From the IMG/VR virus record IMGVR_UViG_3300005099_000288: a stretch of DNA of 64,000 nucleotides; one strand, given 5' to 3'. The notes beneath the pieces are model-generated. The model was given only the letters and a program-made list of their open reading frames with translations, was not told where the DNA came from and did not search any database. A program made the translations under genes and the position numbers. The stretch comes from an uncultured virus (IMG/VR IMGVR_UViG_3300005099_000288). Its lineage: Duplodnaviria; Heunggongvirae; Uroviricota; Caudoviricetes. Of this stretch, positions 40,133 through 62,871 are shown piece after piece (positions within the stretch are counted from its first letter, which is position 1; every line of letters starts with the position of its first letter).

Positions 40133-40633
40133 ATGGAAATATTGGTCGAAGATCTCGAAATCCCAGAAAATTTTTATAGACGATTGTTTTTTCTACAAAA
40201 ATTAAAATCTCTAGGATTTCCTCTCGAAAATGACAACTTCTCTTGTCCCTTCGAATTTAAAAAATCCAAAAAAATATACCCACTACCAGCAACTGCTCCA
40301 TGTATAGTAAAAATCCTTGAATCCAGTTTCGAAAAAGGAATGAGAAACGAATGCACTTTTGCACTTGCACGATTCCTCAGAAAGTATGGTTTCCCTATAG
40401 ATGACGCAGCAAGAATCATAGGATTATGGAATGCACATAACATACCGCCGCTACCTGTGAAAGAAGTTGTCAATACAATAATGAGTGCATACCAAAAAGA
40501 GTACAGCATCTCGTGTGATGATTACATACTCAGAAAATTCTGCAATCCCAAAGTATGCAACAAATCCTCTCATGAGAAATTCAAACCCTTGTTAAAATAT
40601 CTTCTACAAAAACTTGTAATTTCTACTTTATGA
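40133..40633 (+). CDS. stand-alone primase C-terminal (PriCT-1/PriX-like) domain protein
   Basis: GMRNECTFALARFL...WNAHNIPPLPVKEVVNTIMSAY; flanking Cys residues. Confidence 0.7.
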   Translation: MEILVEDLEIPENFYRRLFFLQKLKSLGFPLENDNFSCPFEFKKSKKIYPLPATAPCIVKILESSFEKGMRNECTFALARFLRKYGFPIDDAARIIGLWNAHNIPPLPVKEVVNTIMSAYQKEYSISCDDYILRKFCNPKVCNKSSHEKFKPLLKYLLQKLVISTL

Positions 40634-41598: not shown

Positions 41599-43698
41599 CT
41601 ACGTCACCTTAAAAGTCTTTCTCATTCTGAATTCTGATTTCTTTCCCTCATTCCAATAACTAACAGGCCTGAGATATCCAACAGATCTCGAATACAACTC
41701 ACATTTAGCATTACATTTCGGACAAGTAAAATGTTCTCCAGAAAGATATCCATGATTCGGACATACACTAAATGTCGGCGTAATAGTGAAGTATGGTAAT
41801 CTGTAGTTATAACAAACTTTCCTGACAAGATTTTTTACAATACTACCATGAGTAATTCTCTCTCCAACAAAAATATGGAAAACGGTTCCTCCTGTATACT
41901 TTGTCTGTAATTCATCTTGCAGATCAAGAGCCTCGAATACATCGTCTGTATAATTAACTGGAAGTTGAGAAGAATTTGTATAAAAAGGCTCTGCGCCATT
42001 TTTAAAAGCCTGTTCATTTGCACATATTATGTCGGGATATTTTTTCTTATCTATCATTGCAAGACGATAAGATGTCCCTTCAGCAGGAGTTGCTTCTAGA
42101 TTATAGTTATTTCCGGTTTCCTCTTGGAATTCAATAAGTTTATTTCTCATAAATTCTAAAACTTTCAATCCGAAATTTCTACCATCTTTATCACCTATAG
42201 TTACACCCAAAAGATTTAAACACGCCTCATTCAATCCTACGAGACCAATTGTAGAAAAGTGATTTTTCCAATATGCGCCAAATCTTTTTTTGACATTTCT
42301 CAAATAGTATTTAGTGTAAGGATACAAACCTCGTTCTGTAAATTTCTCCAGAACTCTTCTCTTTATTTCTAAACTATTTTTTGCTAATTGCATGAGTTTT
42401 TCTAATCTTTCGAAAAAATCATCTTCGTCTCTTGATAGATAACCTAATCTCGGCATATTAATAGTTACGACACCAATACTACCAGTAAGGGGATTTGCCC
42501 CAAACAATCCGCCTCCTCTTTTTTCTAATTTCCTTGTGTCTAATCTAAGTCTACAACACATACTCCTTGTATCTTCTGGCCTCATATCTGAATTAATGAA
42601 ATTAGAAAAGTACGGAACACCGTATTTTGCAGTTACTTCCCACAAAAGTTCAAGAAACTCAGCGTCCCATGGAAAATCTGGAGTTATATTATATGTAGGA
42701 ATCGGGAATGTAAAGACCCTACCCTTAGCATCGCCTTCTAGCATTAGTTCCAAGAAAGCTTTATTGAAAATCTCCATTTCTTCTTCAAAATCCCCATATG
42801 TTTCACTTCGTGGTTCTCCTCCTAGAATAACTGCTTGATTCTCAAGATACTCAGGGGTTTTTAAATCCAGAGTTATATTTGTAAAAGGAGTCTGAAATCC
42901 CACTCTTGTAGGTACATTTACGTTAAACAGAAATTCTTGTAAATCTTGCTTAACTTTTTTATATGACAAATTGTCATATCTAATAAACGGTGCAAGAAAA
43001 GTATCAAAATTAGAAAATGCCTGTGCCCCAGCTGCTTCGCCTTGGAGGGTGTAGAAAAAATTAACAACTTGTCCCAAAGCACTACTAAAGTGTTTTGCGG
43101 GTTTACTTTCTATTTTTCCAGAAGCTCCTTTGAAACCCTCCAATAATAGGTCAAGCAAATCCCATCCAACACAATAAACTGACAATACTCCTAAATCATG
43201 AATATGAAAATCACCCTCTATATATGCATTTCGTATCTCTTTTGGATATATTTTGTTGAGCCAGTATATCCTACTTATTTTAGAGGAAACATAATTATTG
43301 AGTCCTTGTAAAGAAAAAGACATGTTACTATTTTCTGTAATTTCCCAATCAGTTTTATTAAGATACTGATCAACAAGATCCGTATTGAATTTAGATGCAA
43401 TCTTTCTAATCTGTGCATGTTGCTCTCTGTAAATAATATATGCTTTGGCGGTTTTTCGGTATGGAGATGCCATTAACACTTCTTCTACAATATCTTGGAT
43501 TTCCTCAACAGAAGGTATCTTATTTTTAATTACCTGTTGTGCAATAGCCAATACTCTAACCGTAAGTTTTTCTGCTACATCTCTACCAAATTCGCCTGTT
43601 GATGCTCCTGCTTTAGAAATCGCATTTGTAATTCGTTCAGGATTAAATTTTACAATTCGTCCGTCTCTCTTTTTTATTTTTTCGAACACTGAATTCAC
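41599..43698 (-). CDS. nrdD: class III ribonucleoside-triphosphate reductase with ATP cone
   Basis: IKKRDGR ATP cone, SMCCRL, EATPAEG, CPNHG...CPKC, YSRSVGYLRP glycyl-radical motif. Confidence 0.95.
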   Translation of the reverse strand: MNSVFEKIKKRDGRIVKFNPERITNAISKAGASTGEFGRDVAEKLTVRVLAIAQQVIKNKIPSVEEIQDIVEEVLMASPYRKTAKAYIIYREQHAQIRKIASKFNTDLVDQYLNKTDWEITENSNMSFSLQGLNNYVSSKISRIYWLNKIYPKEIRNAYIEGDFHIHDLGVLSVYCVGWDLLDLLLEGFKGASGKIESKPAKHFSSALGQVVNFFYTLQGEAAGAQAFSNFDTFLAPFIRYDNLSYKKVKQDLQEFLFNVNVPTRVGFQTPFTNITLDLKTPEYLENQAVILGGEPRSETYGDFEEEMEIFNKAFLELMLEGDAKGRVFTFPIPTYNITPDFPWDAEFLELLWEVTAKYGVPYFSNFINSDMRPEDTRSMCCRLRLDTRKLEKRGGGLFGANPLTGSIGVVTINMPRLGYLSRDEDDFFERLEKLMQLAKNSLEIKRRVLEKFTERGLYPYTKYYLRNVKKRFGAYWKNHFSTIGLVGLNEACLNLLGVTIGDKDGRNFGLKVLEFMRNKLIEFQEETGNNYNLEATPAEGTSYRLAMIDKKKYPDIICANEQAFKNGAEPFYTNSSQLPVNYTDDVFEALDLQDELQTKYTGGTVFHIFVGERITHGSIVKNLVRKVCYNYRLPYFTITPTFSVCPNHGYLSGEHFTCPKCNAKCELYSRSVGYLRPVSYWNEGKKSEFRMRKTFKVT

Positions 43699-46418: not shown

Positions 46419-47165
46419 GTGAAATCGGTGATTTATTCAACAGGTTCTGAGAGATTAGATAAATTATTTGGAGGGTATGAAACTGGAATATTGACTGAAT
46501 TTTTCGGGGGGACTGGAACTGGCAAAACTACTTTAGCAGGTTATGTGCCGATAAAGCAAATATATCTTAAGCACAAGCCTCTTGCAGAAAAACAGAAATT
46601 CATATTTATTGATGGGGACGGAGGATTCGACCTAGAACGAGCTAAGCAAATTTGGGGAGAACATTTCAAAGATATCTACGAACACCTACTTTACTATCAA
46701 CCGACAAAATTCGAAGAACAACACGAATTAATAACTAAAAAATTGCAAGGTTTCATCAAAGAAAGATCTATAAAACCTCTATTTATCGCAGCAGATTCAA
46801 TGACTGCTATTTACAGAGGACAAGTTGCTAGAACAGCGAACAGATACAAAGCTGCTACTATTGGTACCTTGACAGGAAAACTAGACTTACAATTGGTTAG
46901 ACTTCGACAACTTGCAGTTGAATATAATTGTCCTTGTGTCGTTACAACTTGGACTTCTAGTCCAGTAGGTAAAAGTTTAGGGGCAACAGCAGAGCTACCC
47001 ATGATAGGAGGTAGGGCCTTCGGTTTTTTAGCAAAGTGTGTTGTTAGACTAGATATAGCGGAAACCGAAGAGGGTTTCAAAAGATTTGCAGTTCTTCTGA
47101 AACATAGATCTCGCCCGTTAGGTCTTTCTACAGAATTTGAAATTGTTCAGGAGGGGGTGAAATAA
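46419..47165 (+). CDS. RadA/RadB-like recombinase ATPase
   Basis: STGSERLDKLFGG, GGTGTGKT, ADSMTAIYR, KHRS. Confidence 0.85.
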   Translation: MKSVIYSTGSERLDKLFGGYETGILTEFFGGTGTGKTTLAGYVPIKQIYLKHKPLAEKQKFIFIDGDGGFDLERAKQIWGEHFKDIYEHLLYYQPTKFEEQHELITKKLQGFIKERSIKPLFIAADSMTAIYRGQVARTANRYKAATIGTLTGKLDLQLVRLRQLAVEYNCPCVVTTWTSSPVGKSLGATAELPMIGGRAFGFLAKCVVRLDIAETEEGFKRFAVLLKHRSRPLGLSTEFEIVQEGVK

Positions 47166-47564
47166 GTGGTTAATATTTTAGATGTTGATATAGAAGATCT
47201 TAAAAAGAAATTTGAAGGATCAGACAAATTGGAAGTAATGTTTAGATTACAGAAGGAACTCGCTAAAAAATACGGAGCTAAAATTCCGGTTGATCTAAAT
47301 ACTAAGGAAGGACAAGAGGCAATAAGATTTTTAGCATGGTGTGTAGTAGAAGAACTCGCAGAAGCGGTGAATGTTCTGAAAAATCGAAGATGGACAAAAA
47401 CTGAACTCCCTGTAGATACAGATCATTTCTATGAAGAACTTTCGGACACTTTGTTATTTTTCATTGAACTACTACTAGTGGCAGGATTTACTCCTCAGAA
47501 AACAATAGATTTATTTATGAGAAAGTGGAAAGTTAATATGTTCAGGGTAGAATCGAGGTACTAG
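47166..47564 (+). CDS. dimeric all-alpha dUTPase/dCTPase (MazG superfamily)
   Basis: Q--L, EELAEA, K-R-W, EELSD and K--VN--R motifs. Confidence 0.8.
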   Translation: MVNILDVDIEDLKKKFEGSDKLEVMFRLQKELAKKYGAKIPVDLNTKEGQEAIRFLAWCVVEELAEAVNVLKNRRWTKTELPVDTDHFYEELSDTLLFFIELLLVAGFTPQKTIDLFMRKWKVNMFRVESRY

Positions 47565-47565
47565 A

Positions 47566-47706
47566 ATGCTGTGTATAAAATGTAAAAATTTTTCTCCCAA
47601 CCCTCTGAGAAAGGACTTTCTTGAGAAGGGCAGAGGGATGTGTAAGGTGGACGGATCTCCGGTTTATATAAAAGTTTATAGGTGTCCTCACTATGATCCC
47701 TTGTAG
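47566..47706 (+). CDS. 46-aa Cys4 protein (not in ORF track)
   Basis: MLCIKCKNF...GMCKV...CPHY. Confidence 0.5.
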   Translation: MLCIKCKNFSPNPLRKDFLEKGRGMCKVDGSPVYIKVYRCPHYDPL

Positions 47707-48232
47707 GATTTCACAAGATGAATATTTCATGATATTGGCGCTTTTAGTGAGTACCAGGTCTACGTGTTTGAGGAACAGAGTAGGAGCAGTTTTGGTAAAG
47801 GATAAGCGAATTATTTCAACAGGATATAATGGTTCACCAAGAGGGATGAAACATTGTGAAGAAGTAGGATGTCTGAGAGAAGAACTGAAAGTACCCAGTG
47901 GAGAGAGACACGAGATTTGTCGTGCCGTACATGCAGAAATGAATTGTGTAATATGGGCTTCTTTGAACAATTCCTCAACTGCAGGAGCCACTCTTTATGT
48001 AACACACTTTCCGTGTTCAATTTGTGCTAGAATACTGATAAATGCAGGGATAAAACGTATTGTATATTTCAGAGAATACAATGACAAATTTTCGAAGGAT
48101 TTACTTTCTGAAGCAGGTATTGTTATGAGAAAAATTGATTCTGAGCGTCTTCTGAGAAATTTCGAGCAGTGCGTAGATATGATTAGGAAACAGTTTGTAG
48201 AGGAGGGAATATATGTCTGGGAGAATCGTTGA
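47693..48232 (+). CDS. dCMP deaminase
   Basis: RSTC---VGAV, TGYNG, HAEMN, PCSIC. Confidence 0.93.
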   Translation: MIPCRISQDEYFMILALLVSTRSTCLRNRVGAVLVKDKRIISTGYNGSPRGMKHCEEVGCLREELKVPSGERHEICRAVHAEMNCVIWASLNNSSTAGATLYVTHFPCSICARILINAGIKRIVYFREYNDKFSKDLLSEAGIVMRKIDSERLLRNFEQCVDMIRKQFVEEGIYVWENR

Positions 48233-48974
48233 TTTGTTAATAGAACCCTCATATTCCTGTAATTTGAGATGTAGGCATTGTAGTTCTGTTGGTGTAGAAG
48301 AAAGACCTATAAGTTTTTATTGGACTCTTAGGAGAATAGTTTCTTCATATAAGGTAGAACAGATTAGAATAAGTGGAGGGGAACCTACAGTCTATCCGAA
48401 CTTGAGACAATTGATATATTGGTTAAGATCTGAATTTGGCTATGGCGGCAAAATTATCCTTCAGACAAATGGTGTAGAGTATTTTTACGATTGTGAAATC
48501 GACCAATATTGGATATCACTATACGGGGATAAACCTTTCCATGAATGGGTTACTCAGGTTAGAGGAAGTTTTGATAGGACCATTGATACTTTACGAGAAC
48601 ATTACGAGGATTCTCCCGATAAAGTTATAGTACAGACCCCTGTATTTGATTTTGTGCAGTTCAAGAGTATGGATTCTCTTATTAAAAAGTATCCATTTCT
48701 TTCCAATATTACATTCAGGTTTACTCGTTTACTGCAGCATGGAAGTGCCGAATTTCTTTTGTCAGTTTATTCAAGAGAACATCAGTTTGAAGTTGCAAGA
48801 ACTTTCCCATATAAAAAAATAATAACATGCTCTTTGACTGGAAAGAATTGTTCGAGAGATAAAAAACTAATAATAAGACCAGATGGTAGAGTATTTCGGT
48901 GTGCTTCGTGTAAACATGGGATAAATAAATGTTCTGATAAAATTGAGTCGGTAGAACCCCTCGAAAAGTTTTAA
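48213..48974 (+). CDS. radical SAM enzyme with C-terminal twitch/SPASM-like Cys cluster
   Basis: CNLRCRHC, SGGEP, TNG, C---C...IRPDGRVFRC. Confidence 0.85.
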   Translation: MSGRIVDLLIEPSYSCNLRCRHCSSVGVEERPISFYWTLRRIVSSYKVEQIRISGGEPTVYPNLRQLIYWLRSEFGYGGKIILQTNGVEYFYDCEIDQYWISLYGDKPFHEWVTQVRGSFDRTIDTLREHYEDSPDKVIVQTPVFDFVQFKSMDSLIKKYPFLSNITFRFTRLLQHGSAEFLLSVYSREHQFEVARTFPYKKIITCSLTGKNCSRDKKLIIRPDGRVFRCASCKHGINKCSDKIESVEPLEKF

Positions 48975-49010
48975 ATAAAAAAATTGAGTTAACTAATAAG
49001 TGGTGGTAAG

Positions 49011-49229
49011 ATGAGTCATATTAAGACTGCATTGGTCTATATCAATAATACGATAAAAGACCTGAGATTCAAACATAAACTTTACTCTTCTGGAAAATGC
49101 CCCGAATACAAGAAAGTGACTCCTGATCTCTTGAGAACAATCGAATTATTAGAAATGGCAAAAAAAGAACTCGAAGAATTTGAGACTAAATTTAACAAAT
49201 TTTATAGATTACTGGGAAAGATAGTATGA
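49011..49229 (+). CDS. hypothetical protein
   Basis: TATA and GGTGG upstream; 72 aa. Confidence 0.55.
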   Translation: MSHIKTALVYINNTIKDLRFKHKLYSSGKCPEYKKVTPDLLRTIELLEMAKKELEEFETKFNKFYRLLGKIV

Positions 49230-49351
49230 AGACAATAATTGTTGAAATAAAATGTAACAATGAAGAATGTAATTTATGTGAGACTAACGTTACTGAATGC
49301 TTTAATTGCTCATTCTCAGAAGTATTAGGATTTCAGATCAATAGGAGGTGA
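49226..49351 (+). CDS. 41-aa Cys-rich peptide (not in ORF track)
   Basis: KCNNEECNLCE...CFNC; ATGA and GTGA overlaps on the two sides. Confidence 0.5.
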   Translation: MKTIIVEIKCNNEECNLCETNVTECFNCSFSEVLGFQINRR

Positions 49352-50082
49352 AAAAGTTGAGGATTTTTAGGAATTGTGTAGAGGCAATATCTGAATTGAC
49401 TCGTGAGATATTTTCTCGAGGAGTGAGAGCATATGACCCCACAGTACAAGCACAGCATGTTAGTAAAGATAAGTATGAAGCAAAAGAACTATTGGGTTAT
49501 TGCTATTGGATATTAGACGTGAGTGATAGGGACAGAATGTTAGAATGGGCGAGTAAAGAATTCGACAAAAAACATCTAAATCTCAATTACGCTCAGGCAT
49601 GGCTAGAGGAAATGCTTCGTCAAAAAGCTGTAAATCCTGGGACTTCTTGGAAGCATTGGGAAAATTATTGGGGAGATAAACTGGAGACGAACGGGAAGTT
49701 TTCCTACACATATGAAGAGCGTTTTGTATATCTAGACCAAGTTATAAATCATCTCAAGAACAACCGACATGCAAGGGGTGCAGTATTGTCAATATATGAG
49801 ACTACGCGTGATATAACTAATATGGGTCGTTCTAGAACTCCATGTTCAATGTGGATTCAGTTTATGATACGTAAATGGGGAGGATCAGAGAAACTTTTGC
49901 TCTTTTATACTCAGAGATCCTGTGATTTCTGTAATTTCTATCCATTAGACGTGTGGAGAATGACTGGAGTGCAAATATATGCTGCAAATAAACTTGGTGT
50001 CGAAGTAGGTCCATTCATACATTATATTTCATGTTTGCACGCATTTAGAAAAGACGTTAAAGATCCGAGGAGGTTATGGTAA
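49348..50082 (+). CDS. thymidylate synthase homologue, dCMP (hydroxy)methylase-like
   Basis: YTYEER, catalytic PCS, QF, QRSCD, H-ISCLH; Asp at the position equivalent to E. coli N177. Confidence 0.85.
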   Translation: MKKLRIFRNCVEAISELTREIFSRGVRAYDPTVQAQHVSKDKYEAKELLGYCYWILDVSDRDRMLEWASKEFDKKHLNLNYAQAWLEEMLRQKAVNPGTSWKHWENYWGDKLETNGKFSYTYEERFVYLDQVINHLKNNRHARGAVLSIYETTRDITNMGRSRTPCSMWIQFMIRKWGGSEKLLLFYTQRSCDFCNFYPLDVWRMTGVQIYAANKLGVEVGPFIHYISCLHAFRKDVKDPRRLW

Positions 50083-50182
50083 ATGGTCGAGAAAAAGAAA
50101 AAGAAAGAACCAATTGAAATCAGAAGCATATGGGACCTCATAAATTTGGTAATGAATAAAACATCGATAAAAAAAATCTCTA

Positions 50183-50461
50183 TTGAAATGGAAGATGGCA
50201 GAGAATTCATTTACACGAGAGAAAAAAAGGATTGAAGTAGACGGAGATGTCATTAATTGGTTCCTAAAAATACGCAATAAGTTCTATGAGTTCTATAATC
50301 CTAAGGGAGTCCAGTTTAGGGTCTATATAGGAATTGACAAACCTTCGTTCATCGAAATCTCAGGTCCGAATGAGTTACTGGGATCTTTGGAAGAAATAAT
50401 AAAAAATAAGGATAAAAAAACTTTAATCAATCTAATATTAACTGAGAAATTTAGGAGGTAA
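50183..50461 (+). CDS. hypothetical protein
   Basis: ORF within the operon; start uncertain. Confidence 0.45.
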   Translation: MKWKMAENSFTREKKRIEVDGDVINWFLKIRNKFYEFYNPKGVQFRVYIGIDKPSFIEISGPNELLGSLEEIIKNKDKKTLINLILTEKFRR

Positions 50462-50466
50462 AAGTA

Positions 50467-52026
50467 ATGTGCGGAATTATATTCAAAAATAATAAAATAA
50501 CTGAGGATGAGATTTCTTTTCTAGAACATAGGGGTCTGAGATATAATGAGTATAGCTCTAAAAACTTTAGTCTCGGTGTGTGGAGACTACCTACAATGGA
50601 TTTAAGCCAAGACGCAGATCAACCATATGTATGGAGACAATATGTTATAGGGTTTAATGGCAATATTTACAATCATTTATCTCTTAGGGAGATCCTACTA
50701 AAAAACGGTTATAGATTCAAGACAAATTCTGATACCGAGACGTTGTTAAAGTGGTTTCATTATTGTAGAGGGGATTGGAACAAATTTTTTAGGAACTTAG
50801 ACGGAGATTATTCATTCGTAATAGTGGACACTGCGAAAAATAAAGCCTTTATTGCTGTAGATCCTTTGTCGTTTAAACAATTATATTATGCATTTACATC
50901 ACAGAGTGAATGGATTTTTTCTTCTGAATGTAAGCCTATTCTCGCAAATTTTGTCAAGATCTTCTTGTACGAAGATTACCTTCAGATGTATAAAATCTTC
51001 AGATATTGTCCGTATGAGATTACCCCATTCTATAAAGTGTACAAGGTTCCTCAGACCGATATGTTTGTTTTGAATCTAAATACAGGTTCTATTCGAGAGA
51101 TAGATAGACCTGACAATTTATCATTCAAGGTGTCTCAATATACTGAATTGAGGAATATGAATATCGAAGAAGCTGCTAAGGTTTTGCGTAAAAAAATTAT
51201 AGAAACTATTAAACTACGTGCATTGACAGATCAAAAAATCGTAATACCCCTCAGTGGTGGTATTGATTCTTCGATTATTACAAAAGTATGTGCAGATTCT
51301 GGAATTGAAGTAAACGCAATAAATGTCCGATTTAGAGGGTATGATTATGATGAATCAGAATTTGCTGAAGTAATTGCAGAAGATTGTGATATTCCATTAC
51401 ATAAAGTTAATATTTCTCTTTCTAGGAGGGATCTGGTAAATTTTATTTACTACTACGAGAATTTTGCAGATAAGGGGGGTGTAGTACCAGAGTTTTTATT
51501 ACATAAAGCTATTAAGAAATCGAGTTTAGGAATCACAGTACTTTCAGGAGACCCAGCAGATGAGTTATTTGGAGGTTATAAGAGAATTCTTGCCAATAAT
51601 AGAGAGGAATTAATCAGAAAATTCCTAGTGAAATACGAAGATCTTCGTTATGAGTGGATCGTTGATAAGTGGATCAGTAAAACACCTGAAGATGTAGAGT
51701 ATGCTAGACTCTTTTGGGATTTGCTTGAAACTACATTTTATAATTTTCCTAAGAAGGATCGTGCCAGTATGGCTTATACACTGGATTCAAGAGCAGCATA
51801 TTATAGCACAGATCTTATTGCAATGGCAATCGCGATACCTCGAGAATTTAAATATCATAAGGGAATCCGAAAATATATCCTACGTAGGGCATTTAAGGAA
51901 GATTTACCTGAAACTATTTTATGGAGAGAAAAGAAACCGTTCAAATATCCTGGATATAAGAATCTTTTGCTAGAGGAAATTTTTAAAGAAATTTTCTTAG
52001 AAAGGAGGCTCGAATTTGGAAGATAA
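50467..52026 (+). CDS. asparagine synthetase B-like glutamine amidotransferase
   Basis: MCGI N-terminus, HRG, FNGNIYNH, SDTE, LSGGIDSS, SGDPADELFGGY, DRASMA. Confidence 0.9.
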   Translation: MCGIIFKNNKITEDEISFLEHRGLRYNEYSSKNFSLGVWRLPTMDLSQDADQPYVWRQYVIGFNGNIYNHLSLREILLKNGYRFKTNSDTETLLKWFHYCRGDWNKFFRNLDGDYSFVIVDTAKNKAFIAVDPLSFKQLYYAFTSQSEWIFSSECKPILANFVKIFLYEDYLQMYKIFRYCPYEITPFYKVYKVPQTDMFVLNLNTGSIREIDRPDNLSFKVSQYTELRNMNIEEAAKVLRKKIIETIKLRALTDQKIVIPLSGGIDSSIITKVCADSGIEVNAINVRFRGYDYDESEFAEVIAEDCDIPLHKVNISLSRRDLVNFIYYYENFADKGGVVPEFLLHKAIKKSSLGITVLSGDPADELFGGYKRILANNREELIRKFLVKYEDLRYEWIVDKWISKTPEDVEYARLFWDLLETTFYNFPKKDRASMAYTLDSRAAYYSTDLIAMAIAIPREFKYHKGIRKYILRRAFKEDLPETILWREKKPFKYPGYKNLLLEEIFKEIFLERRLEFGR

Positions 52027-52687
52027 AGAACGTAAATTAAAGGAATTATACCGAGAAATTATGTCATGCAATAGGTGTTTCAAAGAAAAAGATCCTCGTT
52101 GTAAAAAAGCGAAATATTTGAGCAATTTCCATATAGTTAGATCAAACAAAGTAATTCTTCTAGGGCATGGAAACATAAACGCTAACGTAATGATCATCGG
52201 GCATTCTCCAAGTCTACACCCAGAAGGTAACAGAGTTATTTTTGGACATAGATCTTATAAGATTTTCAGCGAAATGCTTAAGATATGGGGATTTAAATTT
52301 GAAGAAATTTTTATTTCCAATGTTGTTTTTTGTTACATACCCACATATAAAACAGGAGATTTCGGGTGTCCTTACATCGAGAAACTTGTCGAGATAATTA
52401 ATCCTAGAATTTGTATATTGTTTGGGAGAGAAGTCGTTGAAAGAATTTTAGGAAAGTCTTATCCCTTAGTTGCTCGAAAAGTTATAAAAGACGGTCGTGT
52501 CTACGTAACATGTTATCACCCTATGTATGCTGTTAGGAGTCCTGATAATGCAGAAAGAGTTCTGGAGACCGCGAGAAAAGTAAAGAAATGCTTTAATGGT
52601 ACAACTCTTGATTATTTTTTATACAATCAATCAAATTCAGAGGTGAAAGTATATGGACGTAAATTTTTACAGAATTACGTGGACTAA
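52016..52687 (+). CDS. family 4-like uracil-DNA glycosylase (Fe-S), atypical motif A
   Basis: CNRC, VMIIGHSP, SNVVFC, LFGREV, YHP; C-terminal TTLDYF is PIP-like. Confidence 0.75.
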   Translation: MEDKERKLKELYREIMSCNRCFKEKDPRCKKAKYLSNFHIVRSNKVILLGHGNINANVMIIGHSPSLHPEGNRVIFGHRSYKIFSEMLKIWGFKFEEIFISNVVFCYIPTYKTGDFGCPYIEKLVEIINPRICILFGREVVERILGKSYPLVARKVIKDGRVYVTCYHPMYAVRSPDNAERVLETARKVKKCFNGTTLDYFLYNQSNSEVKVYGRKFLQNYVD

Positions 52688-54902
52688 ATTCGGAGAGGAC
52701 CCTAAACTTAAGTTACTTGTATATAACGAGGATCATAAGGATATTATTTATGTCGATTTTCCTTTCAGACCGTACTTTTTCATAAAAAAAGAAGATTTTA
52801 GTAAAAAATATAAGGATTGGATTTTGAATAATAATGGAGAAATCAGTGAGTTTAGGGATTTTGTAAAGGTTGAGTTACCAACACCAGACTTAGTTAGTAA
52901 ATTTAGGAGAGAAAATAGAGTTGAAACTTGGGAAGGTGATATCCCTTATGCTAGACGAGTAATGATAGATTGTGATCTCAGTGTAGGGGAACCCCTGAAT
53001 AAATTATATTTTGATATAGAAGTAGATCCAGTCAAAAAAATCAATGTCCAAGATCCACAGGCTAGGATTTTATCAATTGCAGCAGTAGACGATAAGGGGA
53101 ACGAATTCTTTTTTTCTGATAAAGATGAAGTTAACATGATTTTAGATTTTTTAAGACTTAGCGAAAGATATGTCGTTGCTGTCGGTTATTATGCAGGAAG
53201 ATTTGATTATCCTTATTTGAGGAATAGAGCAAAATTACTTGGAATTGATTACGATTGGTTTAAATTTGTTTTTCTGGATTTATATTCGATTTATCGATAC
53301 GTCTTGCACAAATCCGTTGAAACATATAGACTTGATTATATTTCGGAGTTAGAATTGGGACAAAAGAAGTACAGGGATCTTGAGAGAGAAGGAAAAATAC
53401 AGCTTTTGAGAGAGTGGTTCGAGAAAAAATCTGAAGAACTTAGGAAATATAATATGCAAGACGCTGTGTTATGCAAGGAATTGGACGAAAAATTAGGAAT
53501 GGTTGATCTGGTATTTAGAATTGCTCAGATTTCTCATACGACCTTTGATTACATTTTTTCATACAGGGAAGAGAAAAAGAGAGATTTTTTGGCTTCAGTT
53601 GTTATAGATTCTTTGGTATTAAATTTATCGAAGAAAAGAGGAGAAAATCGAGTAATATTTCCATCAAGAAGACGCTTCGTAGATATGGAAGAAGAAACAT
53701 ATTCAGGAGGATATGTCAAAGATCCAGTACCTGGATTACACAGGGATGTAGTAGTTTTAGATTTCTCAGGAGCATATAATACTGCATTTAAAGTTCTAAA
53801 TATCGGATGGGAAACATGGCGTAGGGACAAGAGTGGTGAAATAAAAGCTTTACACGGATCTTATACTAAAGAACCGCGGGGGTTATTTGCAGAAACAGTA
53901 GAAATCCTAGAAAAATTACGTGCAAAGTATAAAGGGGAAAGAAAGAAGTACGAGCCTGGTACAAAGGAGTGGAAAATCTATGATACTCTACAATTTGCGT
54001 GTAAGACCATTTTATTAAGTGTTACAGGGATTCTTGGTTATAAGCATTCTCGATTTTACAGGACTGAACATATCGAGAACTGTACAACAATGGTAAGGGA
54101 TTGTATTATTAGGATGATACAAATAGTCGAAGAGGATCTACGTCTAAAAGTTTTGGGAGCAGATACTGATAGTCTTTTTATTAAAGTTTTTGATCCTCCT
54201 CTGAGACCTAAGGTAGAAGTGAAAGGAAATACTATAGTTGAAAAAGCCTACAATATATGTGATTTTCTGAATAAAAAATTAAAAGAGTATTGTAGGGTCG
54301 TCTATAATACAGATCCTTTAGTATTGAGTGTTGACAAAATTTATTCGAAACTTTTTGTATTTCCTGTGAAGAAGAGATATGCTGGGATAGTTACATATGA
54401 AGACGGGAATGAGTGTTTTTATTTGAAATATGTAGGTATTGAAGCTGTGAAAAAAGATACACCTCCAGCTGTTAGGGAGTTTCAGAGAGAATTATTACGA
54501 ATGATACTTGCAGGGTATAGAATGTCTGAGATTGTTAAATACGCCAACGAAATAAAGGAACGACTCTTTAAAGGAAGACTCGATGAGGGCTTAGTTGTGT
54601 GGAAGGGATTGAATAAACCTATTGAAGAGTATGCAGTTGATGCACCTCATGTTCGGGTCGCTAAAATACTCGAGGCGGAAGGACATCAAGTACGAACAGG
54701 GGACAAAATAGGATTTATTAGATATGGTCCGGATAAGAGAGATGTAGAACCTTATTATATTGGGAGGAAGACTAAAATACCTCCGAGGGGTTATAAGTAT
54801 TTGTGGGATAACCAGTTTGTTCCGATCTTAGAGAGGCTTGGCCTCTCTGCTTACACTAGCAGACAAACAAAATTGGAGGGATTCGTACGAAAATCCTCAT
54901 AG
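52653..54902 (+). CDS. polB: family B DNA polymerase
   Basis: ExoI FDIE, ExoII FDYPYL, ExoIII YNMQD; pol LDF, DTDS, KKRY; C-terminal PIP box QTKLEGF. Confidence 0.93.
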   Translation: MDVNFYRITWTKFGEDPKLKLLVYNEDHKDIIYVDFPFRPYFFIKKEDFSKKYKDWILNNNGEISEFRDFVKVELPTPDLVSKFRRENRVETWEGDIPYARRVMIDCDLSVGEPLNKLYFDIEVDPVKKINVQDPQARILSIAAVDDKGNEFFFSDKDEVNMILDFLRLSERYVVAVGYYAGRFDYPYLRNRAKLLGIDYDWFKFVFLDLYSIYRYVLHKSVETYRLDYISELELGQKKYRDLEREGKIQLLREWFEKKSEELRKYNMQDAVLCKELDEKLGMVDLVFRIAQISHTTFDYIFSYREEKKRDFLASVVIDSLVLNLSKKRGENRVIFPSRRRFVDMEEETYSGGYVKDPVPGLHRDVVVLDFSGAYNTAFKVLNIGWETWRRDKSGEIKALHGSYTKEPRGLFAETVEILEKLRAKYKGERKKYEPGTKEWKIYDTLQFACKTILLSVTGILGYKHSRFYRTEHIENCTTMVRDCIIRMIQIVEEDLRLKVLGADTDSLFIKVFDPPLRPKVEVKGNTIVEKAYNICDFLNKKLKEYCRVVYNTDPLVLSVDKIYSKLFVFPVKKRYAGIVTYEDGNECFYLKYVGIEAVKKDTPPAVREFQRELLRMILAGYRMSEIVKYANEIKERLFKGRLDEGLVVWKGLNKPIEEYAVDAPHVRVAKILEAEGHQVRTGDKIGFIRYGPDKRDVEPYYIGRKTKIPPRGYKYLWDNQFVPILERLGLSAYTSRQTKLEGFVRKSS

Positions 54903-56587: not shown

Positions 56588-56860
56588 ATGCTTGAAATCA
56601 TCGACTGGGAAGAACTCAGAAAAATAATAAGTGAGAGCAAAATAGAAGGACGAATTGATGTAGACAAAATTAAGAAGGTTCTCGAAAAATTATACGTTGT
56701 ATCATATTTAGAAGTTATGGGATTCTACAGAGAGGGGACTCTCGACATGAAAATTTCAGAGGAAATGAAAAAATTAAATAAAGAAGAGATCAAGTTAGTG
56801 TCAATAATCCTCGGAGAGATCGGAGAATCTATCATAAGGCGTTTTATAGTGGGAGGCTAG
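56588..56860 (+). CDS. hypothetical protein
   Basis: 90-aa ORF. Confidence 0.55.
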   Translation: MLEIIDWEELRKIISESKIEGRIDVDKIKKVLEKLYVVSYLEVMGFYREGTLDMKISEEMKKLNKEEIKLVSIILGEIGESIIRRFIVGG

Positions 56861-56863
56861 TCT

Positions 56864-57358
56864 GTGGGAGATCTGTACTTATTGAAAGTTCCAGGTTATA
56901 CATTGATTAGAATGGATGATGATTTTTACAAACTACTCAAATTTGCTGCTGAGGAACATAAAAAGATATTCAGATTGTCTGAAAAACGTTTTAATTATTA
57001 TGTTTACCTGGACAAAAAAAGAGCTTTTGTAGATGCAATTAGGAGTATTAAAATGAATGCTACTTTTATTGATGAGGTTCCAGAACATCATTCTGATATT
57101 TTTCTCGCAACTTCTTGGCCTGTTACGTGGGTTATTATATTTTTCAGGGAGTATGGGGGTAGTGTCAAAAAACTTAAATATAGTGTGCATAAGAAAGAGG
57201 GAAAACTTGTTCTTTTAAATGAAAAATACATGGAAGTATGTCCTATAGAGGAGTACAAAGGAGTGCGTGTTAGCAAAATAATTGAGAGCCCTACATTAAT
57301 TTACTTTCGTCAATCTGGAAAATCCAAGCGATACCTAAAATCTAGGGGATTTCTATAA
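56864..57358 (+). CDS. distant MTWY-family member
   Basis: LYLLKVP...YYVYLDKKRAFVD...SDIF. Confidence 0.5.
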   Translation: MGDLYLLKVPGYTLIRMDDDFYKLLKFAAEEHKKIFRLSEKRFNYYVYLDKKRAFVDAIRSIKMNATFIDEVPEHHSDIFLATSWPVTWVIIFFREYGGSVKKLKYSVHKKEGKLVLLNEKYMEVCPIEEYKGVRVSKIIESPTLIYFRQSGKSKRYLKSRGFL

Positions 57359-57393
57359 TTTTTTATCTAGTTAAAGCCTGTACTTTTATACAG

Positions 57394-58773
57394 GTGATAA
57401 AAATGAAAGACTTTGAAGAGTTTGTAGAATCTATTTTACATGAAGAGAACGGATTTGAATTTGGAGAACCCTGGAGAAAATCCGATAAATCCCTGACAGT
57501 AGTAGTACCAATTTTGAGAAAAAATGCACCTGAGAGAAACTACGTTACAATAGACGAAGTGAAAGACAAAGTCCAAGTAGAAGATACAGGAAATATTCAC
57601 AGGATTCGTATTGTTTCTAATGACAGTCGTCCAGTTTTTGTAAGGAGTGGAAGTATTTTCAAAGGAGAAGGGACTCAGAGTAGAGGAATCGTCGAATCTA
57701 CAGTACTTTATCCGAACGAAATTAAAGAAGTTGAGGCAAGGTGTGTTCACGCGAGTCATCCCATAAGAACAAGGGCAAAATTCTCTTATGTTGGAGTTGC
57801 TCCGCTGTCTGTCCGAAAAAATTTGGTTTCTGGAGTTTCCCAGCCTAGAGTTTGGGCTTCAGTGAACCAAGTTGCAGGTACGGACAATTTAGTTGCATTT
57901 ATGGCAGCTCCCTCTGATGCAGGAACAGTATCTCACCGCCCTCAGGTTAGTATTCCAGGGCCAGTTGCTGGGGTTAGGAGAAGAATTTCTCGTAGAGTTG
58001 ATTTATCGAAAGTTGACAGATCAATAGAAGATATTCCAGTGTTGGGGGATCAAGCTGGAGTCATTATATTGGACATGGAAGGTATAGTAGCATTTGAGGT
58101 TTTCGATAATCCAAAATCTTGGGTTACATTTCATTCTGGAATTCTAAAGGACATTGATACCGAGGAGCCGATATTTAAAATGGACGAAAAAGCAGTAGAG
58201 ACACGAGTCAGGAGATTCCTGATCGGATTAGTAGAACTTAGAGATTTTGAAGTTGTCGACGAAGGTGACAGACACAAGACATTTAAATTTGCATTCGATC
58301 GCAGGTATGTTGGAGAGTTTACAAAAGTGGATAATCAGATAATTCATATAATTGTTACGAGAACCGAAGATTTACAAGAAGAATCTGGAAATTCTGAGAT
58401 AAATTTTGTCGAAAACATAGTAGGTAGAGTAACAGGAGTTCTTGAGTATTTTGCTGATCGTACAAGGACTGATACATCAACTGGATCTACTACCATTACT
58501 GATAATAGTACAAACATAGATAATTCAGTAAGGGTTTATACGATACCAGGAGGATTTCGTGATTTAAGTCGAAGGTGGTCGACACGAACTTTTTCAAAAT
58601 ATGCTAAAGCTTTGAGAGATTCAGGATTGATTGAGAAAAAAGGTCGTTCGTATGTTTTGACCAAAAATGGTCACAGAATTTTGTCTAAAATGGAAGATTT
58701 GAAGGAAGATCTCGCTAGTACCGCAAAGAGAGCTCTCTACAGGAGGTTAGGGGAAGAAGAGTTTAAAAATTAA
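57394..58773 (+). CDS. ARPP-1/DUF6569-like protein with C-terminal wHTH
   Basis: PVFVRSGSIFKG-GTQSR...VEARCV...SQPRVW; C-terminal LRDSGLIEK---YVLTKNG. Confidence 0.6.
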   Translation: MIKMKDFEEFVESILHEENGFEFGEPWRKSDKSLTVVVPILRKNAPERNYVTIDEVKDKVQVEDTGNIHRIRIVSNDSRPVFVRSGSIFKGEGTQSRGIVESTVLYPNEIKEVEARCVHASHPIRTRAKFSYVGVAPLSVRKNLVSGVSQPRVWASVNQVAGTDNLVAFMAAPSDAGTVSHRPQVSIPGPVAGVRRRISRRVDLSKVDRSIEDIPVLGDQAGVIILDMEGIVAFEVFDNPKSWVTFHSGILKDIDTEEPIFKMDEKAVETRVRRFLIGLVELRDFEVVDEGDRHKTFKFAFDRRYVGEFTKVDNQIIHIIVTRTEDLQEESGNSEINFVENIVGRVTGVLEYFADRTRTDTSTGSTTITDNSTNIDNSVRVYTIPGGFRDLSRRWSTRTFSKYAKALRDSGLIEKKGRSYVLTKNGHRILSKMEDLKEDLASTAKRALYRRLGEEEFKN

Positions 58774-58788
58774 AAGTAAAAATATGAT

Positions 58789-59808
58789 TTGATGGTTATA
58801 ATAATTTGGAGAGGTCCAGGAAGAGGAACTGAAAGTGCAGTTGAATCCTTAATTACAGGACTTCGCAGGTATAATGTGGATTTTATGGATGTTTCGAGTG
58901 TAGCAGATAAATTTTTCAAAGATCAGCCAGATAAAATATATAGACTCGAGAAATTCTCACCTGATCTTATACATACACATAGTATAAATTTTTGTATAAA
59001 TGCTCTGAAAAAGCCTCTCTACGTACCTACAGTATTGACTGTACATGGTTACATGTTCAGAATTCTAGAACCTAAAAAGAGAATTGCTGGTTTTATAAGA
59101 GATTCCTTTTTTTCTGCAGATGCAATAATTGCACCTTCGATAGAATTGAAGAATCAAATAAAAAAAGAAGGATTTGACAACGTTTTTTATATTCCAAATA
59201 TGATAGATCCTAATAAATTCACTCCTGAACTTGCAGAATATACCGGGATTTTAGAGGAGATCAGAAAAGATCTAAAGATATCAGAGAAAGACACAGTTGT
59301 CGCAAGTGTTGGTAACATGCACTGGTATAAAGGAGTTGATACTTTTCTAGAAGCAGGGAAGATCTTACAGAAGAGTGTCGATAACTTAAAATTGTTGTGG
59401 ATAGGAAAGGACATGGGGTGGACAAGATTGAGTAAATTTTTAGAACCTGTTAAAGACATTTTTAAATTAGTTGAAATTAGGGATTATAATTTGATGCCTT
59501 TTGTATATCATTTGATAGATGTGTATTGTCATTTTTCAAGATGGGATGCTTGTAGTATGAGTTTTCTCGAGGCGATGTCTTCGGGTATTCCAGTTGTACA
59601 TACTCCAGTTGGAGAACATTCTAGAGTAAATCTGTGCACGGGAAGAACCCCTGAAGAACTCGCTGAGTTAGTCCTTAAATGTATCGATAGAAAGAGCGTT
59701 TATGGTAGACTTTTTAGAGAAGAAGTTTTGAAGAGGTATTCGATAGATGCAGTAATGCCTCGAGTATTGAGACTTTATATGAATCTGATAGAAGATCCGT
59801 TCTACTGA
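58789..59808 (+). CDS. GT4 glycosyltransferase
   Basis: IHTH, TVHG, IPNMID, KGVD, FLEAMSSGIPVV. Confidence 0.88.
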   Translation: MMVIIIWRGPGRGTESAVESLITGLRRYNVDFMDVSSVADKFFKDQPDKIYRLEKFSPDLIHTHSINFCINALKKPLYVPTVLTVHGYMFRILEPKKRIAGFIRDSFFSADAIIAPSIELKNQIKKEGFDNVFYIPNMIDPNKFTPELAEYTGILEEIRKDLKISEKDTVVASVGNMHWYKGVDTFLEAGKILQKSVDNLKLLWIGKDMGWTRLSKFLEPVKDIFKLVEIRDYNLMPFVYHLIDVYCHFSRWDACSMSFLEAMSSGIPVVHTPVGEHSRVNLCTGRTPEELAELVLKCIDRKSVYGRLFREEVLKRYSIDAVMPRVLRLYMNLIEDPFY

Positions 59809-59817
59809 GGTGAGAAA

Positions 59818-60768
59818 ATGAAGAAAATGCGACTTGTTGGATGGTCAGACCCATATGGTAGTGGAGCAACAATAGTTTTAGAAGCACTGGCAGAGACATT
59901 ATCCAAGTTTTTTGAAGTTGAAATAGTAACTGACGAAGATATGAAAAACCCTATGACCTACTTAAAATTTGATGGTGATGTGATATACACTTCAGATTAT
60001 TTTACACTTTCAAAAATTCCACCAAATCTTCTGAGAAAGAGAAAATACAAAATTGTTTTAGAATTCCGAGGATATTCTGTAGATAAGATAAAAAATCCGA
60101 ATTGGGAAAATATCACAAAGAACGCGGATATCATTACAGCAGTAGATCCTACATTAGCAGAATGGGTCCGTAGTAATACAGGGATAAAGGATATTCCAAT
60201 TCTGCCTCCTTCTTATAACAAGGATTTATTTAGATTTAAAGGGTTCGACAGGACTCCTTATAAAATAGCGCTTTTCGGAGAGAAAAATGAAACTCATTTA
60301 CTTTATCCATATTTGTATTCTCCTGTTAAAAAACCACAGAACTTCGTTGAAATCTGTAATAAACTTGGAGTGAAGGGAATAATGTTCCGATATCCTTTAA
60401 TGTTAATGTCTAGTCCATTGAATATTTATCTCGTGGATTTCTTACCTCAATATCAAATGGTTAATTATTATTATGCATGTGATATTGTTTGTGCATATAC
60501 TGAAATTGAAGGTATGCCAAAGGCACCCTTAGAAGCAATGGCAACCGGAAGGCCCATTATAATGCATTTCGTCCCAGGATTACTCAGGGATTCCCCTGTA
60601 ATAGCCGTTAAGGATATTGAAGAAGCGTGTGACAAAATAAAAGAATTACTGGAGGATGAAGATAAGTATAAATCTCAGGTTACGAAACAATTAGAGTTTG
60701 TATCTAAATGGTATTCATGGGAAGATAAAGCACGTCAAATTTATGAAATCATCGAAAGAGCTCAGTAA
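59818..60768 (+). CDS. GT4 glycosyltransferase
   Basis: EGMPKAPLEAMATGRP, YSWE. Confidence 0.82.
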   Translation: MKKMRLVGWSDPYGSGATIVLEALAETLSKFFEVEIVTDEDMKNPMTYLKFDGDVIYTSDYFTLSKIPPNLLRKRKYKIVLEFRGYSVDKIKNPNWENITKNADIITAVDPTLAEWVRSNTGIKDIPILPPSYNKDLFRFKGFDRTPYKIALFGEKNETHLLYPYLYSPVKKPQNFVEICNKLGVKGIMFRYPLMLMSSPLNIYLVDFLPQYQMVNYYYACDIVCAYTEIEGMPKAPLEAMATGRPIIMHFVPGLLRDSPVIAVKDIEEACDKIKELLEDEDKYKSQVTKQLEFVSKWYSWEDKARQIYEIIERAQ

Positions 60769-61731: not shown

Positions 61732-62871
61732 GTGACTATCATGGCAGTTAGTGTTGGCCAGTTTGAAATGATACCTGGAGTAAAGTATCCAGTGACGATA
61801 GCTCAGATTAAAGAGATAATAAAAACACTGTACAGGAGTGGTCCCGAGAAAGCTCCAGCGATCTTTATATGGGGAAAAATGGGGGTCGGGAAGAGTAGTA
61901 GTGTTAGACAGTGTGCGCATGAACTAGGGATTGAATTCATAGATCTTCGTCTGTCTCAGTTAGATCCTACGGATTTAAGAGGCCTTCCTTCTATAGCAAC
62001 AGGAGAAGTTAAGTGGGTCCCTCCTTCGTTTCTTCCTAGGTTCGGCAAGGGAATACTTTTCCTAGATGAATTAAATTTAGCTCCACCTGCAGTACAGGCA
62101 GCAGGATATGAATTACTTCTTGATAGAAGAGTAGGCGAATATGAACTTCCTGAGGGCTGGATGATTGTAGCAGCAGGGAACCAAGAAGAGCTCTCCCCGT
62201 ATATTTATGAAATGGCTCCACCACTAGCTAACAGAATGGTGCATTTAGTTGTAAAGTTAGATCTAGATATATGGAAAGAGTGGGCATATCGTGCTGGTAT
62301 AGACACTAGCATTATTGCATTTTTGACAAAAAATCCACAATACTTATTTTACTATGATCCCACAAAACCTGTGAAGGCGTATCCAACACCAAGATCGTGG
62401 GAGTTCGTATCACGAATATTAGGATCTGGGTTAGTTGGAGCTGAACTTGAAGCAGCAGTTTTCGGAACAATTGGTCAAGCAGTAGGTATAGAGTTCTTGA
62501 CTTTCAGGAGACTACAAGAAGAAATGCCAGATCCGTTAAAGGTAATAAGAGGAGAAGAAAAACCTATAATTACTGGAAAACCTGATGTGATGTATTTATT
62601 AATAACTTCGTGCGTAGCATGGATACCCAGATTACCTCCTGAAATTTCGGTACAAAAAGCTGTCGATAATCTTATAGACTATGCAAACTATTTATATAAA
62701 TATGGGAAAGAGCAAGGTAGAACAGAATTCGTTGCTACATCTGTAGTTCTAATTAGAGACATGGTAGATGCAGGATTTGATGACTATCTAATAAAATCAG
62801 AAAAGATGGAAGAATGCGTCGAGACGGGTCCTTGTTCAGAGACTTTGAAAACTTTCAAGAAAGTCGGTTAA
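61732..62871 (+). CDS. MoxR-like AAA+ ATPase
   Basis: GKMGVGKS, DPTDLRGLP, LFLDELN, AAGN, PLANRM, TPRSW. Confidence 0.9.
   Translation: MTIMAVSVGQFEMIPGVKYPVTIAQIKEIIKTLYRSGPEKAPAIFIWGKMGVGKSSSVRQCAHELGIEFIDLRLSQLDPTDLRGLPSIATGEVKWVPPSFLPRFGKGILFLDELNLAPPAVQAAGYELLLDRRVGEYELPEGWMIVAAGNQEELSPYIYEMAPPLANRMVHLVVKLDLDIWKEWAYRAGIDTSIIAFLTKNPQYLFYYDPTKPVKAYPTPRSWEFVSRILGSGLVGAELEAAVFGTIGQAVGIEFLTFRRLQEEMPDPLKVIRGEEKPIITGKPDVMYLLITSCVAWIPRLPPEISVQKAVDNLIDYANYLYKYGKEQGRTEFVATSVVLIRDMVDAGFDDYLIKSEKMEECVETGPCSETLKTFKKVG

Follow-up and report, generated by a model that had tools for sequence, protein, structure and literature searches.

The hydroxymethylcytosine (hmC) pathway of phage T4 consists of the gp56 dCTPase, the gp42 dCMP hydroxymethylase (dCH), the cd deaminase, the gp1 kinase and glucosyltransferases. 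Here, this and other described routes to modified cytosine are compared with a block of genes at positions 47166-54902 of a 64-kb stretch of DNA (hereafter the window) from an uncultured virus of the Caudoviricetes (IMG/VR record IMGVR_UViG_3300005099_000288). The window was taken out of a 78,604-bp contig, of which 14.6 kb lie outside it, and the block encodes, among others, a homologue of thymidylate synthase (TS) and an AsnB-type glutamine amidotransferase. According to the accessible text of two reports, contigs with modified cytosine are marked by the joint presence of a dCMP deaminase, a PRA-PH-type pyrophosphatase and an Asp-type TS, the deaminase genes being co-localised with TS in 104 of 149 cases in modified contigs vs 17 of 277 in unmodified ones (10.1101/2024.12.05.627091; PMC8670742). 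The accessible part of the first of them also names PaMx74 as a phage carrying 5-methylcytosine (5mC).

As to the residues involved, the accessible text of PMC13326640 reports that Asp at the site of Asn177 of E. coli ThyA (the N177 site) leads to dCMP preference, as established by mutagenesis, that an acidic residue at the L143 site accompanies hydroxymethyl products, and that Asn at the D169 site is the mark of flavin- and O2-dependent 5-hydroxy-dCMP synthases. For T4 dCH, the accessible text of PMC6400193 describes Asp145, three residues ahead of the catalytic Cys, as activating the substrate water (the D145N variant yields no 5hm-dCMP), with a signature that also needs Ser or Thr two residues ahead of Tyr96. 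An AsnB homologue, CmoY, ligates glycine to carboxymethyl-cytosine in phage DNA and is the only characterised precedent for such enzymes working on C5 side chains (PMC12783734). The same report describes a further CmoY cluster, one that includes a glutamine amidase domain, and its main text, in the accessible part, makes no mention of 'thymidylate synthase'.

The reading we prefer, with a probability of about 60%, is that the block is a nucleotide-pool and replication module of a double-stranded DNA virus, by which cytosine would be modified at the nucleotide level and the product would replace C in the DNA. The core of pyrophosphatase, Asp-type TS and deaminase is an already known kind of system, and the locus is new in three respects, namely the unassigned TS subfamily, the AsnB partner and the archaeal-type virus. 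The window proteins were compared with Pfam, TIGRFAM-type (TIGR01536, TIGR00758) and PHROG models. These matches place in the block, all on the + strand, the seven gene types that an earlier note on this DNA had listed for it (pyrophosphatase, deaminase, radical S-adenosylmethionine (SAM) enzyme, TS, amidotransferase, a protein like uracil-DNA glycosylase (UDG) and PolB). With the preceding gene and two short open reading frames (ORFs), the features are as follows:

46419..47165, + strand: RadA/Rad51-type recombinase (PF08423 Rad51 55.4 bits vs RecA 19.7 bits)
47166..47564, + strand: all-alpha (MazG/DCTPP1-like) NTP pyrophosphatase, putative dCTPase (PF08761 dUTPase_2 30.1 bits; phrog_12184 'nucleotide pyrophosphohydrolase' 7.6e-21)
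47693..48232, + strand: dCMP-deaminase-family zinc deaminase (dCMP_cyt_deam_1 89 bits; phrog_174 7.4e-55)
48213..48974, + strand: small radical SAM/SPASM-like protein (Radical_SAM 31.8 bits; CxxxCxxC motif in the translation)
49011..49229, + strand: 72-aa ORF of no known family
49348 (GTG) or 49357 (TTG)..50082, + strand: TS homologue of the 'Arg/Asp' subfamily (Thymidylat_synt 53.9 bits)
50183..50461, + strand: 92-aa ORF of no known family
50467..52026, + strand: AsnB-type glutamine amidotransferase with a PP-loop adenylating domain (Asn_synthase 137 bits, GATase_7 97 bits, phrog_16728 4.8e-63)
52016..52687, + strand: UDG-like protein, family-4-like (UDG 59.6 bits)
52653..54902, + strand: family B DNA polymerase, PolB (DNA_pol_B 107 bits)

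The closest relative, L097, is a metagenome contig of 7.2 kb with the same gene order as the block, apart from the radical SAM gene. RadA leads the order there, the C-terminus of the recombinase being conserved at the start of the contig, and is the first gene of the common synteny block. Amino-acid identities were 75% for the pyrophosphatase, 64% for the deaminase, 74% for the 72-aa ORF, which adjoins TS there too, 82% for TS, 40% for the 92-aa ORF, again between the TS and AsnB genes, 55% for AsnB, 58% for the UDG-like protein and 64% for PolB.

The TS protein as called (P0001) is 241 aa long. In HMMER alignments with TSs of solved structure, RSCDFCNFYPLD stands over RSADVFLGVPFN, which places Asp201 (codon GAC) on the Asn177 site; a MAFFT alignment with E. 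coli ThyA (NC_000913) gave the same position, which bears out what the earlier note had claimed for this residue. The true start is probably the TTG at 49357, judging from the GGAGGTG Shine-Dalgarno sequence ahead of it with 7 nt spacing; the Asp would then be residue 198, with coordinates unchanged. The protein belongs to the TS superfamily (PF00303) by its fold, catalytic Cys and phosphate-binding Arg residues, and Cys166, Arg190 and Arg143 are invariant or almost so in the subfamily alignment. Its fold model (pLDDT 96.7) had 396 matches in the PDB at E<=0.001, all TS-superfamily enzymes among the matches listed. The top solved neighbours, sharing 14-19% identity with it, were the CMP hydroxymethylase MilA (TMq 0.75), the HY126 dCMP hydroxylase AfhB (9iqu, 9iqc), ordinary TSs and T4 dCH. 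In a profile search against solved proteins a 5-hydroxy-dCMP synthase came out best (E 2.8e-14), and hhalign gave 97% probability for the alignment with T4 gp42. The protein stops 14 residues past the His207 site.

Relatives were found mainly by profile. A word-based search returned only 8, and a scan of viral contigs with the single protein returned none, whereas the profile found 246 subfamily members at E<=1e-30 among 1.84 billion representatives and at least 518 relatives among 566 candidate stretches of viral contigs. The subfamily alignment, mapped to E. coli numbering, holds 146 of 156 collected proteins (200-300 aa) and the window protein, i.e. 147 rows. The key sites are given below, the residues being numbered from the GTG at 49348:

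Tyr120, + strand: no E. coli number assigned, 147/147
Arg163, 49834-49836, + strand: E. coli Leu143 site, 147/147
Cys166, 49843-49845, + strand: catalytic, E. coli Cys146 site, 147/147
Asp193, 49924-49926, + strand: E. coli Asp169 site, 145/147
E. coli Gly173 site: His in 118/147 and Phe in 24/147, the window protein being among the Phe group
Asp201, 49948-49950, + strand: E. coli Asn177 site, 147/147

The invariance of the Asp at the N177 site in all members shows that it did not arise there by chance. A quick maximum-likelihood tree (94 rows) separated the subfamily (87 rows) from T4 gp42, RB69 gp48, PaMx74 TS and E. coli ThyA, with the limits that the reference rows are long-branched, the careful search is incomplete and the root is arbitrary. 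The invariant Asp and the nearest solved relatives (MilA, the HY126 dCMP hydroxylase and T4 dCH) together support the assignment of the TS homologue as a cytosine-type enzyme, in line with the dCMP type proposed for it before.

LAGLIDADG-domain inteins are found in the subfamily members P0039, P0047 and P0073; the break in the profile match falls at about 165-166, beside the catalytic Cys, in P0039 and P0073, and in P0047 the intein lies earlier. In Clostridium phage P21, positions 5991-8762 hold a row of a kinase-like gene, a pyrophosphatase, an unknown 249-aa ORF and a subfamily TS with Arg and Asp kept. Since P21 is an isolated phage, cultured viruses with a subfamily TS exist; the literature on Clostridium perfringens phages with a subfamily member yielded nothing relevant.

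The residues and the length of the protein were set against those of the described enzymes. Where a canonical dUMP-methylating ThyA has Asn177, Leu143 and a C-terminal tail, the window protein has Asp201, Arg163 and a short end. With the T4-type dCMP hydroxymethylase it shares the Asp at the N177 site (Asp201 aligns with T4 Asp179), whereas in place of the Asp/Glu and the Ser/Thr there are Arg163 and Tyr120 (two ahead of Tyr122), each in 147/147. It also lacks the Asn of the 5-hydroxy-dCMP synthases at the D169 site, having Asp193 (145/147) where RB69 gp48 shows RSQN. Finally, a dCMP methylase of the Xp12/PaMx74 type would be a full-length TS with its tail and a linked dihydrofolate reductase (DHFR). 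Past the His207 site there are 11-14 residues in the subfamily vs 64 in PaMx74 TS (31 in T4 gp42), and DHFR was found in none of the 50 viral records with the subfamily that were surveyed (50 of the best 80, mostly short contigs dropped; 19 of the 50 at least 90% complete). By its sequence, the window TS departs in defining features from all three assigned cytosine families, the tail and DHFR being generalised as such from one phage. The 5-(hydroxy)methyl-dC proposed in the earlier note is a candidate product, the signature of T4-type hydroxymethylases being absent, with Arg ahead of the Cys. Because the residue pattern fits no assigned cytosine family, a product established by expressing one member could be carried over to hundreds of viral genomes.

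The same residues bear on an ordinary nucleotide supply, in which TS would make dTMP despite the Asp, the deaminase and the pyrophosphatase would feed dUMP and AsnB would be an auxiliary enzyme for asparagine. A pyrophosphatase of the dUTPase family and a deaminase are the genes that such a dUMP-to-dTMP route requires, the 64-kb window showed neither a second TS nor ThyX, and AsnB scores nearly at the asparagine synthase equivalog cut-off. We nevertheless consider this very unlikely: the Asp occupies the N177 site in all 147 rows and is tied to dCMP by mutagenesis (accessible text of PMC13326640), the TS of the methanogen virus PhiF1 keeps Asn, and asparagine hardly explains the linkage of AsnB and TS over unrelated viruses.

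The gene context of the subfamily was followed in TS-centred loci (the best 80 of at least 518 viral relatives), with clustering counts taken within 6 kb of TS. The pyrophosphatase family lay near TS in 62/80 loci and the deaminase in 43/80 (52/80 and 44/80, respectively, by tblastn over whole loci); AsnB was present in 14/80 by either count, a look-alike of C5-methyltransferases in 19/80 and a small kinase-like protein (phrog_761, thymidylate kinase, E 3.7e-13) in 29/80. The setting of pyrophosphatase and deaminase matches the published mark of modified-cytosine phages, so that the gene context claimed by the earlier note is upheld, also by this co-occurrence.

The pyrophosphatase belongs to the all-alpha NTP pyrophosphatases by its four-helix fold and acidic ligands, E63 and E66 (metal ligands) being invariant in alignment A6; its dCTP specificity is putative. 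By sequence it had 0 matches among solved chains. The all-helical fold model (pLDDT 91.8) matched best, although weakly, the mammalian dCTPase DCTPP1 (E 3.4e-3, TMq 0.53-0.56), followed by the Archaeoglobus pyrophosphatase AF1178 and iMazG, likewise weakly. The earlier description as a dimeric dUTPase/dCTPase holds at the superfamily level only; the BLASTP match to T4 gp56 was not significant (E 0.52).

This trio of pyrophosphatase, TS and deaminase is where the strongest competitor comes in, a scheme of the Xp12/PaMx74 type. TS would be a dCMP methylase giving plain 5mC DNA, the deaminase would convert part of the 5-methyl-dC nucleotide pool to dT nucleotides (a thymidylate bypass), and AsnB would be unrelated to the base. 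PaMx74 has the identical gene order, pyrophosphatase-thyA-cd, and in the accessible text of 10.1101/2024.12.05.627091 five of seven deaminase-linked Asp-type TSs made 5-methyl-dCMP, their deaminases acting on 5-methyl-dCTP and 5-hydroxymethyl-dCTP. Moreover, the subfamily TS was the sole ThyA or ThyX gene in 17 of the 19 viral genomes at least 90% complete; ThyX occurred in 5/50 records (2/19 near-complete) and a second canonical ThyA in 1/50 (0/19 near-complete). The linked deaminase, and the fact that most genomes have no other thymidylate synthase, lean to the Xp12-like scheme. On the other side, PaMx74 TS is full length and has DHFR nearby, the tree keeps the subfamily apart from both PaMx74 TS and E. 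coli ThyA, and a methyl group offers AsnB nothing to act on, though AsnB is a recurrent partner. The missing DHFR, the missing tail and a partner needing a functional handle lean away from plain methylation. On balance, we regard this scheme as unlikely, yet a serious contender.

The AsnB partner was examined from its own side as well, in AsnB-centred loci (the best 80 of at least 450 relatives among 593 candidate stretches of viral contigs; TS counted within 8 kb). A subfamily TS lay near AsnB in 48 of the 80, in 42 of these 48 without the C5-methyltransferase look-alike. The remaining 32 loci have neither TS nor look-alike, and 27 of them form one group of near-identical loci, mostly with a Gp23-type capsid gene. 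In the TS tree, AsnB-bearing loci are spread over at least five distinct positions, and the window AsnB matches only 11 of 50,697 phage records (tblastn, E<=1e-5). From these numbers the link between AsnB and TS is real, recurrent and independent of the look-alike; synteny and co-occurrence thus confirm the amidotransferase, which the earlier note had proposed as a possible member of the pathway, as a genuine recurrent partner of TS. A literature search brought up no paper in which AsnB and a TS homologue are linked in DNA modification.

In 13 of the 14 AsnB-bearing TS loci there is a fixed cassette of a kinase-like gene, AsnB, pyrophosphatase, an N6/N4-type methyltransferase, the C5-methyltransferase look-alike, TS, deaminase and PolB; the fourteenth (L017) has no look-alike. 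All cassette AsnBs retain the N-terminal Cys and the PP-loop, and the window copy has MCG and SGGIDS. In the look-alikes (loci L010, L015, L018, L019, L040 and others) GHPECG and DNLP replace the usual Pro-Cys and ENV motifs, and each cassette has one or two of them, beside the N6/N4-type methyltransferase with its N-terminal Cys cluster.

The presence of the look-alike in 13 of the 14 loci and the described CmoY cluster with a glutamine amidase domain (PMC12783734, accessible text) would suit a further explanation, in which AsnB works in a CmoX/CmoY-like post-replicative pathway (carboxymethyl-cytosine formation, then amidation) and merely adjoins the TS module. We hold it to be highly improbable: the window, L097 and L017 have AsnB without such a methyltransferase, like the 42 TS-holding AsnB loci above, and the look-alikes carry GHPECG and not the CmoX-defining SPPC motif. 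Neither an SPPC methyltransferase nor CmoA was found in the 64-kb window, with no CmoA-like match among the window proteins scanned.

In the preferred reading of nucleotide-level replacement, we deduce the substrates, the product, its incorporation into DNA and the role of AsnB from what is directly observed, i.e. the gene identities, active-site residues, subfamily, synteny and co-occurrence. The all-alpha pyrophosphatase would convert dCTP, and probably dUTP too, to the monophosphate. Cys166 of TS would attack C6 of dCMP while Asp201 reads the cytosine face, and a one-carbon unit would be placed onto C5 to give a C5-substituted dCMP. Kinases (none found in the 64-kb window) would then raise it to the modified triphosphate, which PolB would put into DNA in place of C. 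The deaminase would provide dUMP for thymidylate synthesis, as in T4, or deaminate part of the modified pool, as in the Xp12-type scheme. For the AsnB-like partner, the most likely role would be elaboration of the C5 side chain, at the nucleotide or at the DNA stage, with the help of ATP and of ammonia from glutamine.

Several observations weigh against this reading. The T4-type residues are replaced by Arg163 and Tyr120, as given above, and the trio fits an Xp12-type scheme, with dCMP methylated and partly deaminated to dT, equally well. Only 14 of the 80 TS loci carry AsnB. The glutamine pocket of the window AsnB reads NGN where E. coli AsnB has N74-G75-E76, and its TIGR01536 score (265.8 bits) is just 1.3 bits short of the asparagine synthase equivalog cut-off (267.1). 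A dedicated dNMP kinase of the T4 kind is missing from the 64-kb window of the 78,604-bp contig, where tblastn gave no hit (best E 0.17-1.4) and a search for additional Walker-A ORFs was negative. A short C-terminus is also seen in the Asn-type TS of Methanobacterium virus PhiF1, so a missing tail alone does not exclude methylation. Finally, a literature search found no chemical data for this virus or any member of the 'Arg/Asp' subfamily.

A bolder version, tentative and on the whole rather unlikely, is that the subfamily represents a fourth kind of cytosine-C5 enzyme, the virus DNA bearing an undescribed nitrogen-containing cytosine made without oxygen. Neither hydride (giving methyl) nor water activated by Asp (giving hydroxymethyl) would resolve the exocyclic-methylene intermediate. 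Either the invariant Arg would hold an anionic nucleophile, e.g. an amino acid, whose carboxylate the AsnB-type partner amidates, or AsnB would adenylate a 5-hydroxymethyl group, to be replaced by ammonia. For the former, MnmE/MnmG offer an analogy, since they use glycine on tRNA uridine. Candidate bases would be 5-aminomethyl- or 5-(carbamoylmethylaminomethyl)-cytosine, and, if true, cytosine replacement ahead of replication would be documented here for the first time in an archaeal virus.

Modified bases allow viruses to escape restriction and CRISPR nucleases and are a source of enzymes for epigenetic sequencing. The repeated pairing of TS with an ATP- and glutamine-using amidotransferase points to an undescribed side chain, and nucleotide-level cytosine replacement would extend to archaeal viruses if the host is archaeal; a literature search found no report of it in these viruses. 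The virus itself is likely archaeal, judging from its Rad51-type (not RecA-type) recombinase, ERCC4-HhH nuclease, archaeal-type best PolB models and HTH_45 and HVO_A0261 domains, and from a well-supported TS clade joining the window to a contig binned in an Archaeoglobales metagenome-assembled genome (MAG). The host is probably an anaerobe, and the element has the anaerobic ribonucleotide reductase genes NrdD and NrdG. NrdD (41599-43698, - strand) was also tried for the assignment of the host and gave mixed domains, the nearest proteins (85-88% identity) being labelled as from Thermoplasmatales, Aerophobetes and Thermotoga MAGs; either the gene moves widely or viral contigs are mis-binned.

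Of two further groups of genes which the earlier note had drawn into the pathway, one was rejected and the other is unsupported. The radical SAM gene, supposed to elaborate the base, is absent in L097, with about 200 bp where the window has 760 bp with the gene, and its homologues occur in 0/80 TS-centred and 0/80 AsnB-centred loci. A word-based search gave 2 homologues besides the protein itself, a viral contig scan with it found no relative, and its atlas matches were only unnamed virus-borne rSAM/SPASM clusters; by these comparisons, the gene is an insertion special to this element, outside the conserved module. GT-B enzymes and epimerases can decorate 5hmC (preprint). The element has one GT2, three GT-B glycosyltransferases and two NAD-dependent sugar epimerase/dehydratases (29561-37457, - strand, and 58789-60768, + strand), which may act on virion proteins, host glycans or DNA. 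A DNA-decorating role of the two GT4 genes and the methyltransferase is unsupported, as they lie 4-6 kb off behind unrelated genes and were found by tblastn in 0/80 TS loci. They, too, are outside the conserved system.

The UDG-like gene overlaps the PolB start by 35 nt, and its product scored 63.3 bits with TIGR00758 (cut-off 125.3). Family 4 UDGs have the motifs GE(A/G)PG (motif A) and HPS (motif B). The proteins of the window and of L097 (5006-5608) have GHSPS and HPM, and those of loci L005 and L025 keep GEAPG; the GHSPS may reflect an altered base specificity.

From 44.3 kb to the window end all genes are on the + strand, tightly packed or overlapping. A MazG-like gene and a Cas4-SWIM nuclease precede the recombinase and the block genes listed above, and PolB is followed by the ERCC4-HhH nuclease, unknown ORFs, an ARPP-1/wHTH protein, two GT4-like glycosyltransferases, a SAM methyltransferase and a MoxR-type ATPase. 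Upstream of the block, the opposite strand carries NrdD and NrdG, many family-less ORFs, weak baseplate matches, a sugar-nucleotide/glycosyltransferase cluster and a tyrosine integrase; among these genes there is a PriCT primase fragment on the + strand (40133-40633). No tRNA genes were found in the 64-kb window. At 9233-15100 (- strand) lie about 10 tandem paralogous ORFs (150-200 aa, 25-50% mutual identity), none with a Pfam or PHROG match. The ARPP-1 domain protein (57394-58773, + strand; region 56588-58773) has a C-terminal winged helix, and a 90-aa ORF upstream of it matches weakly a two-component ADP-ribose glycohydrolase domain (E 0.0015); from these domains, the two may form an NAD/ADP-ribose conflict module. 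The MoxR-type ATPase (phrog_1297, 2.7e-84) and a DUF2201 protein (61732-63999, + strand) run off the 3' end, and a VWA protein (1-1209, + strand) enters the window at the 5' end; these three families commonly act together.

Compared with the known systems, the block resembles the T4 hmC pathway in its all-alpha pyrophosphatase, its Asp-type TS homologue without the TS tail, its dCMP deaminase and its B-family polymerase. It differs from T4 in the Arg for Asp145 three residues before the Cys and the Tyr for Ser94, in having no gp1-like kinase in the 64-kb window and no linked DNA glycosyltransferase, and in a pyrophosphatase without BLASTP-detectable kinship to gp56. With Xp12/PaMx74 it has in common the linked pyrophosphatase, TS and deaminase gene types, the Asp at the N177 site and a deaminase 35% identical to PaMx74 cd; unlike in the subfamily, the TS of PaMx74 is full length, the residue three positions ahead of its Cys is Asn, and DHFR lies three genes off. 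The 5-hydroxy-dCMP synthases (RB69 gp48, DLP3 gp80 and HY126 AfhB; PDB 9iqc/9iqu) are likewise short with Asp at the N177 site, but they carry Asn and Glu at the D169 and L143 sites, respectively, and use flavin and O2, whereas the window TS keeps Asp193, has Arg163 and resides in an element with anaerobic NrdD/NrdG.

As in the CmoX/CmoY system of Synechococcus phage S-B43 (PMC12783734, accessible text), there is an asparagine-synthetase homologue and a C5 substituent of cytosine, the latter predicted for the window. SpCmoY uses glycine, whereas the window AsnB has a glutaminase domain and stands in a window without CmoX or CmoA; no Synechococcus phage was matched by the window AsnB in the tblastn search over the 50,697 phage records (E<=1e-5). 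Finally, the block is like the MetaGPA triad with a 5hmC carbamoyltransferase, as described in the accessible text of PMC8670742, in combining TS, a PRA-PH-type pyrophosphatase and a deaminase with an extra ATP-using decorating enzyme, the candidate for which is of the AsnB type here and of the TobZ type there.

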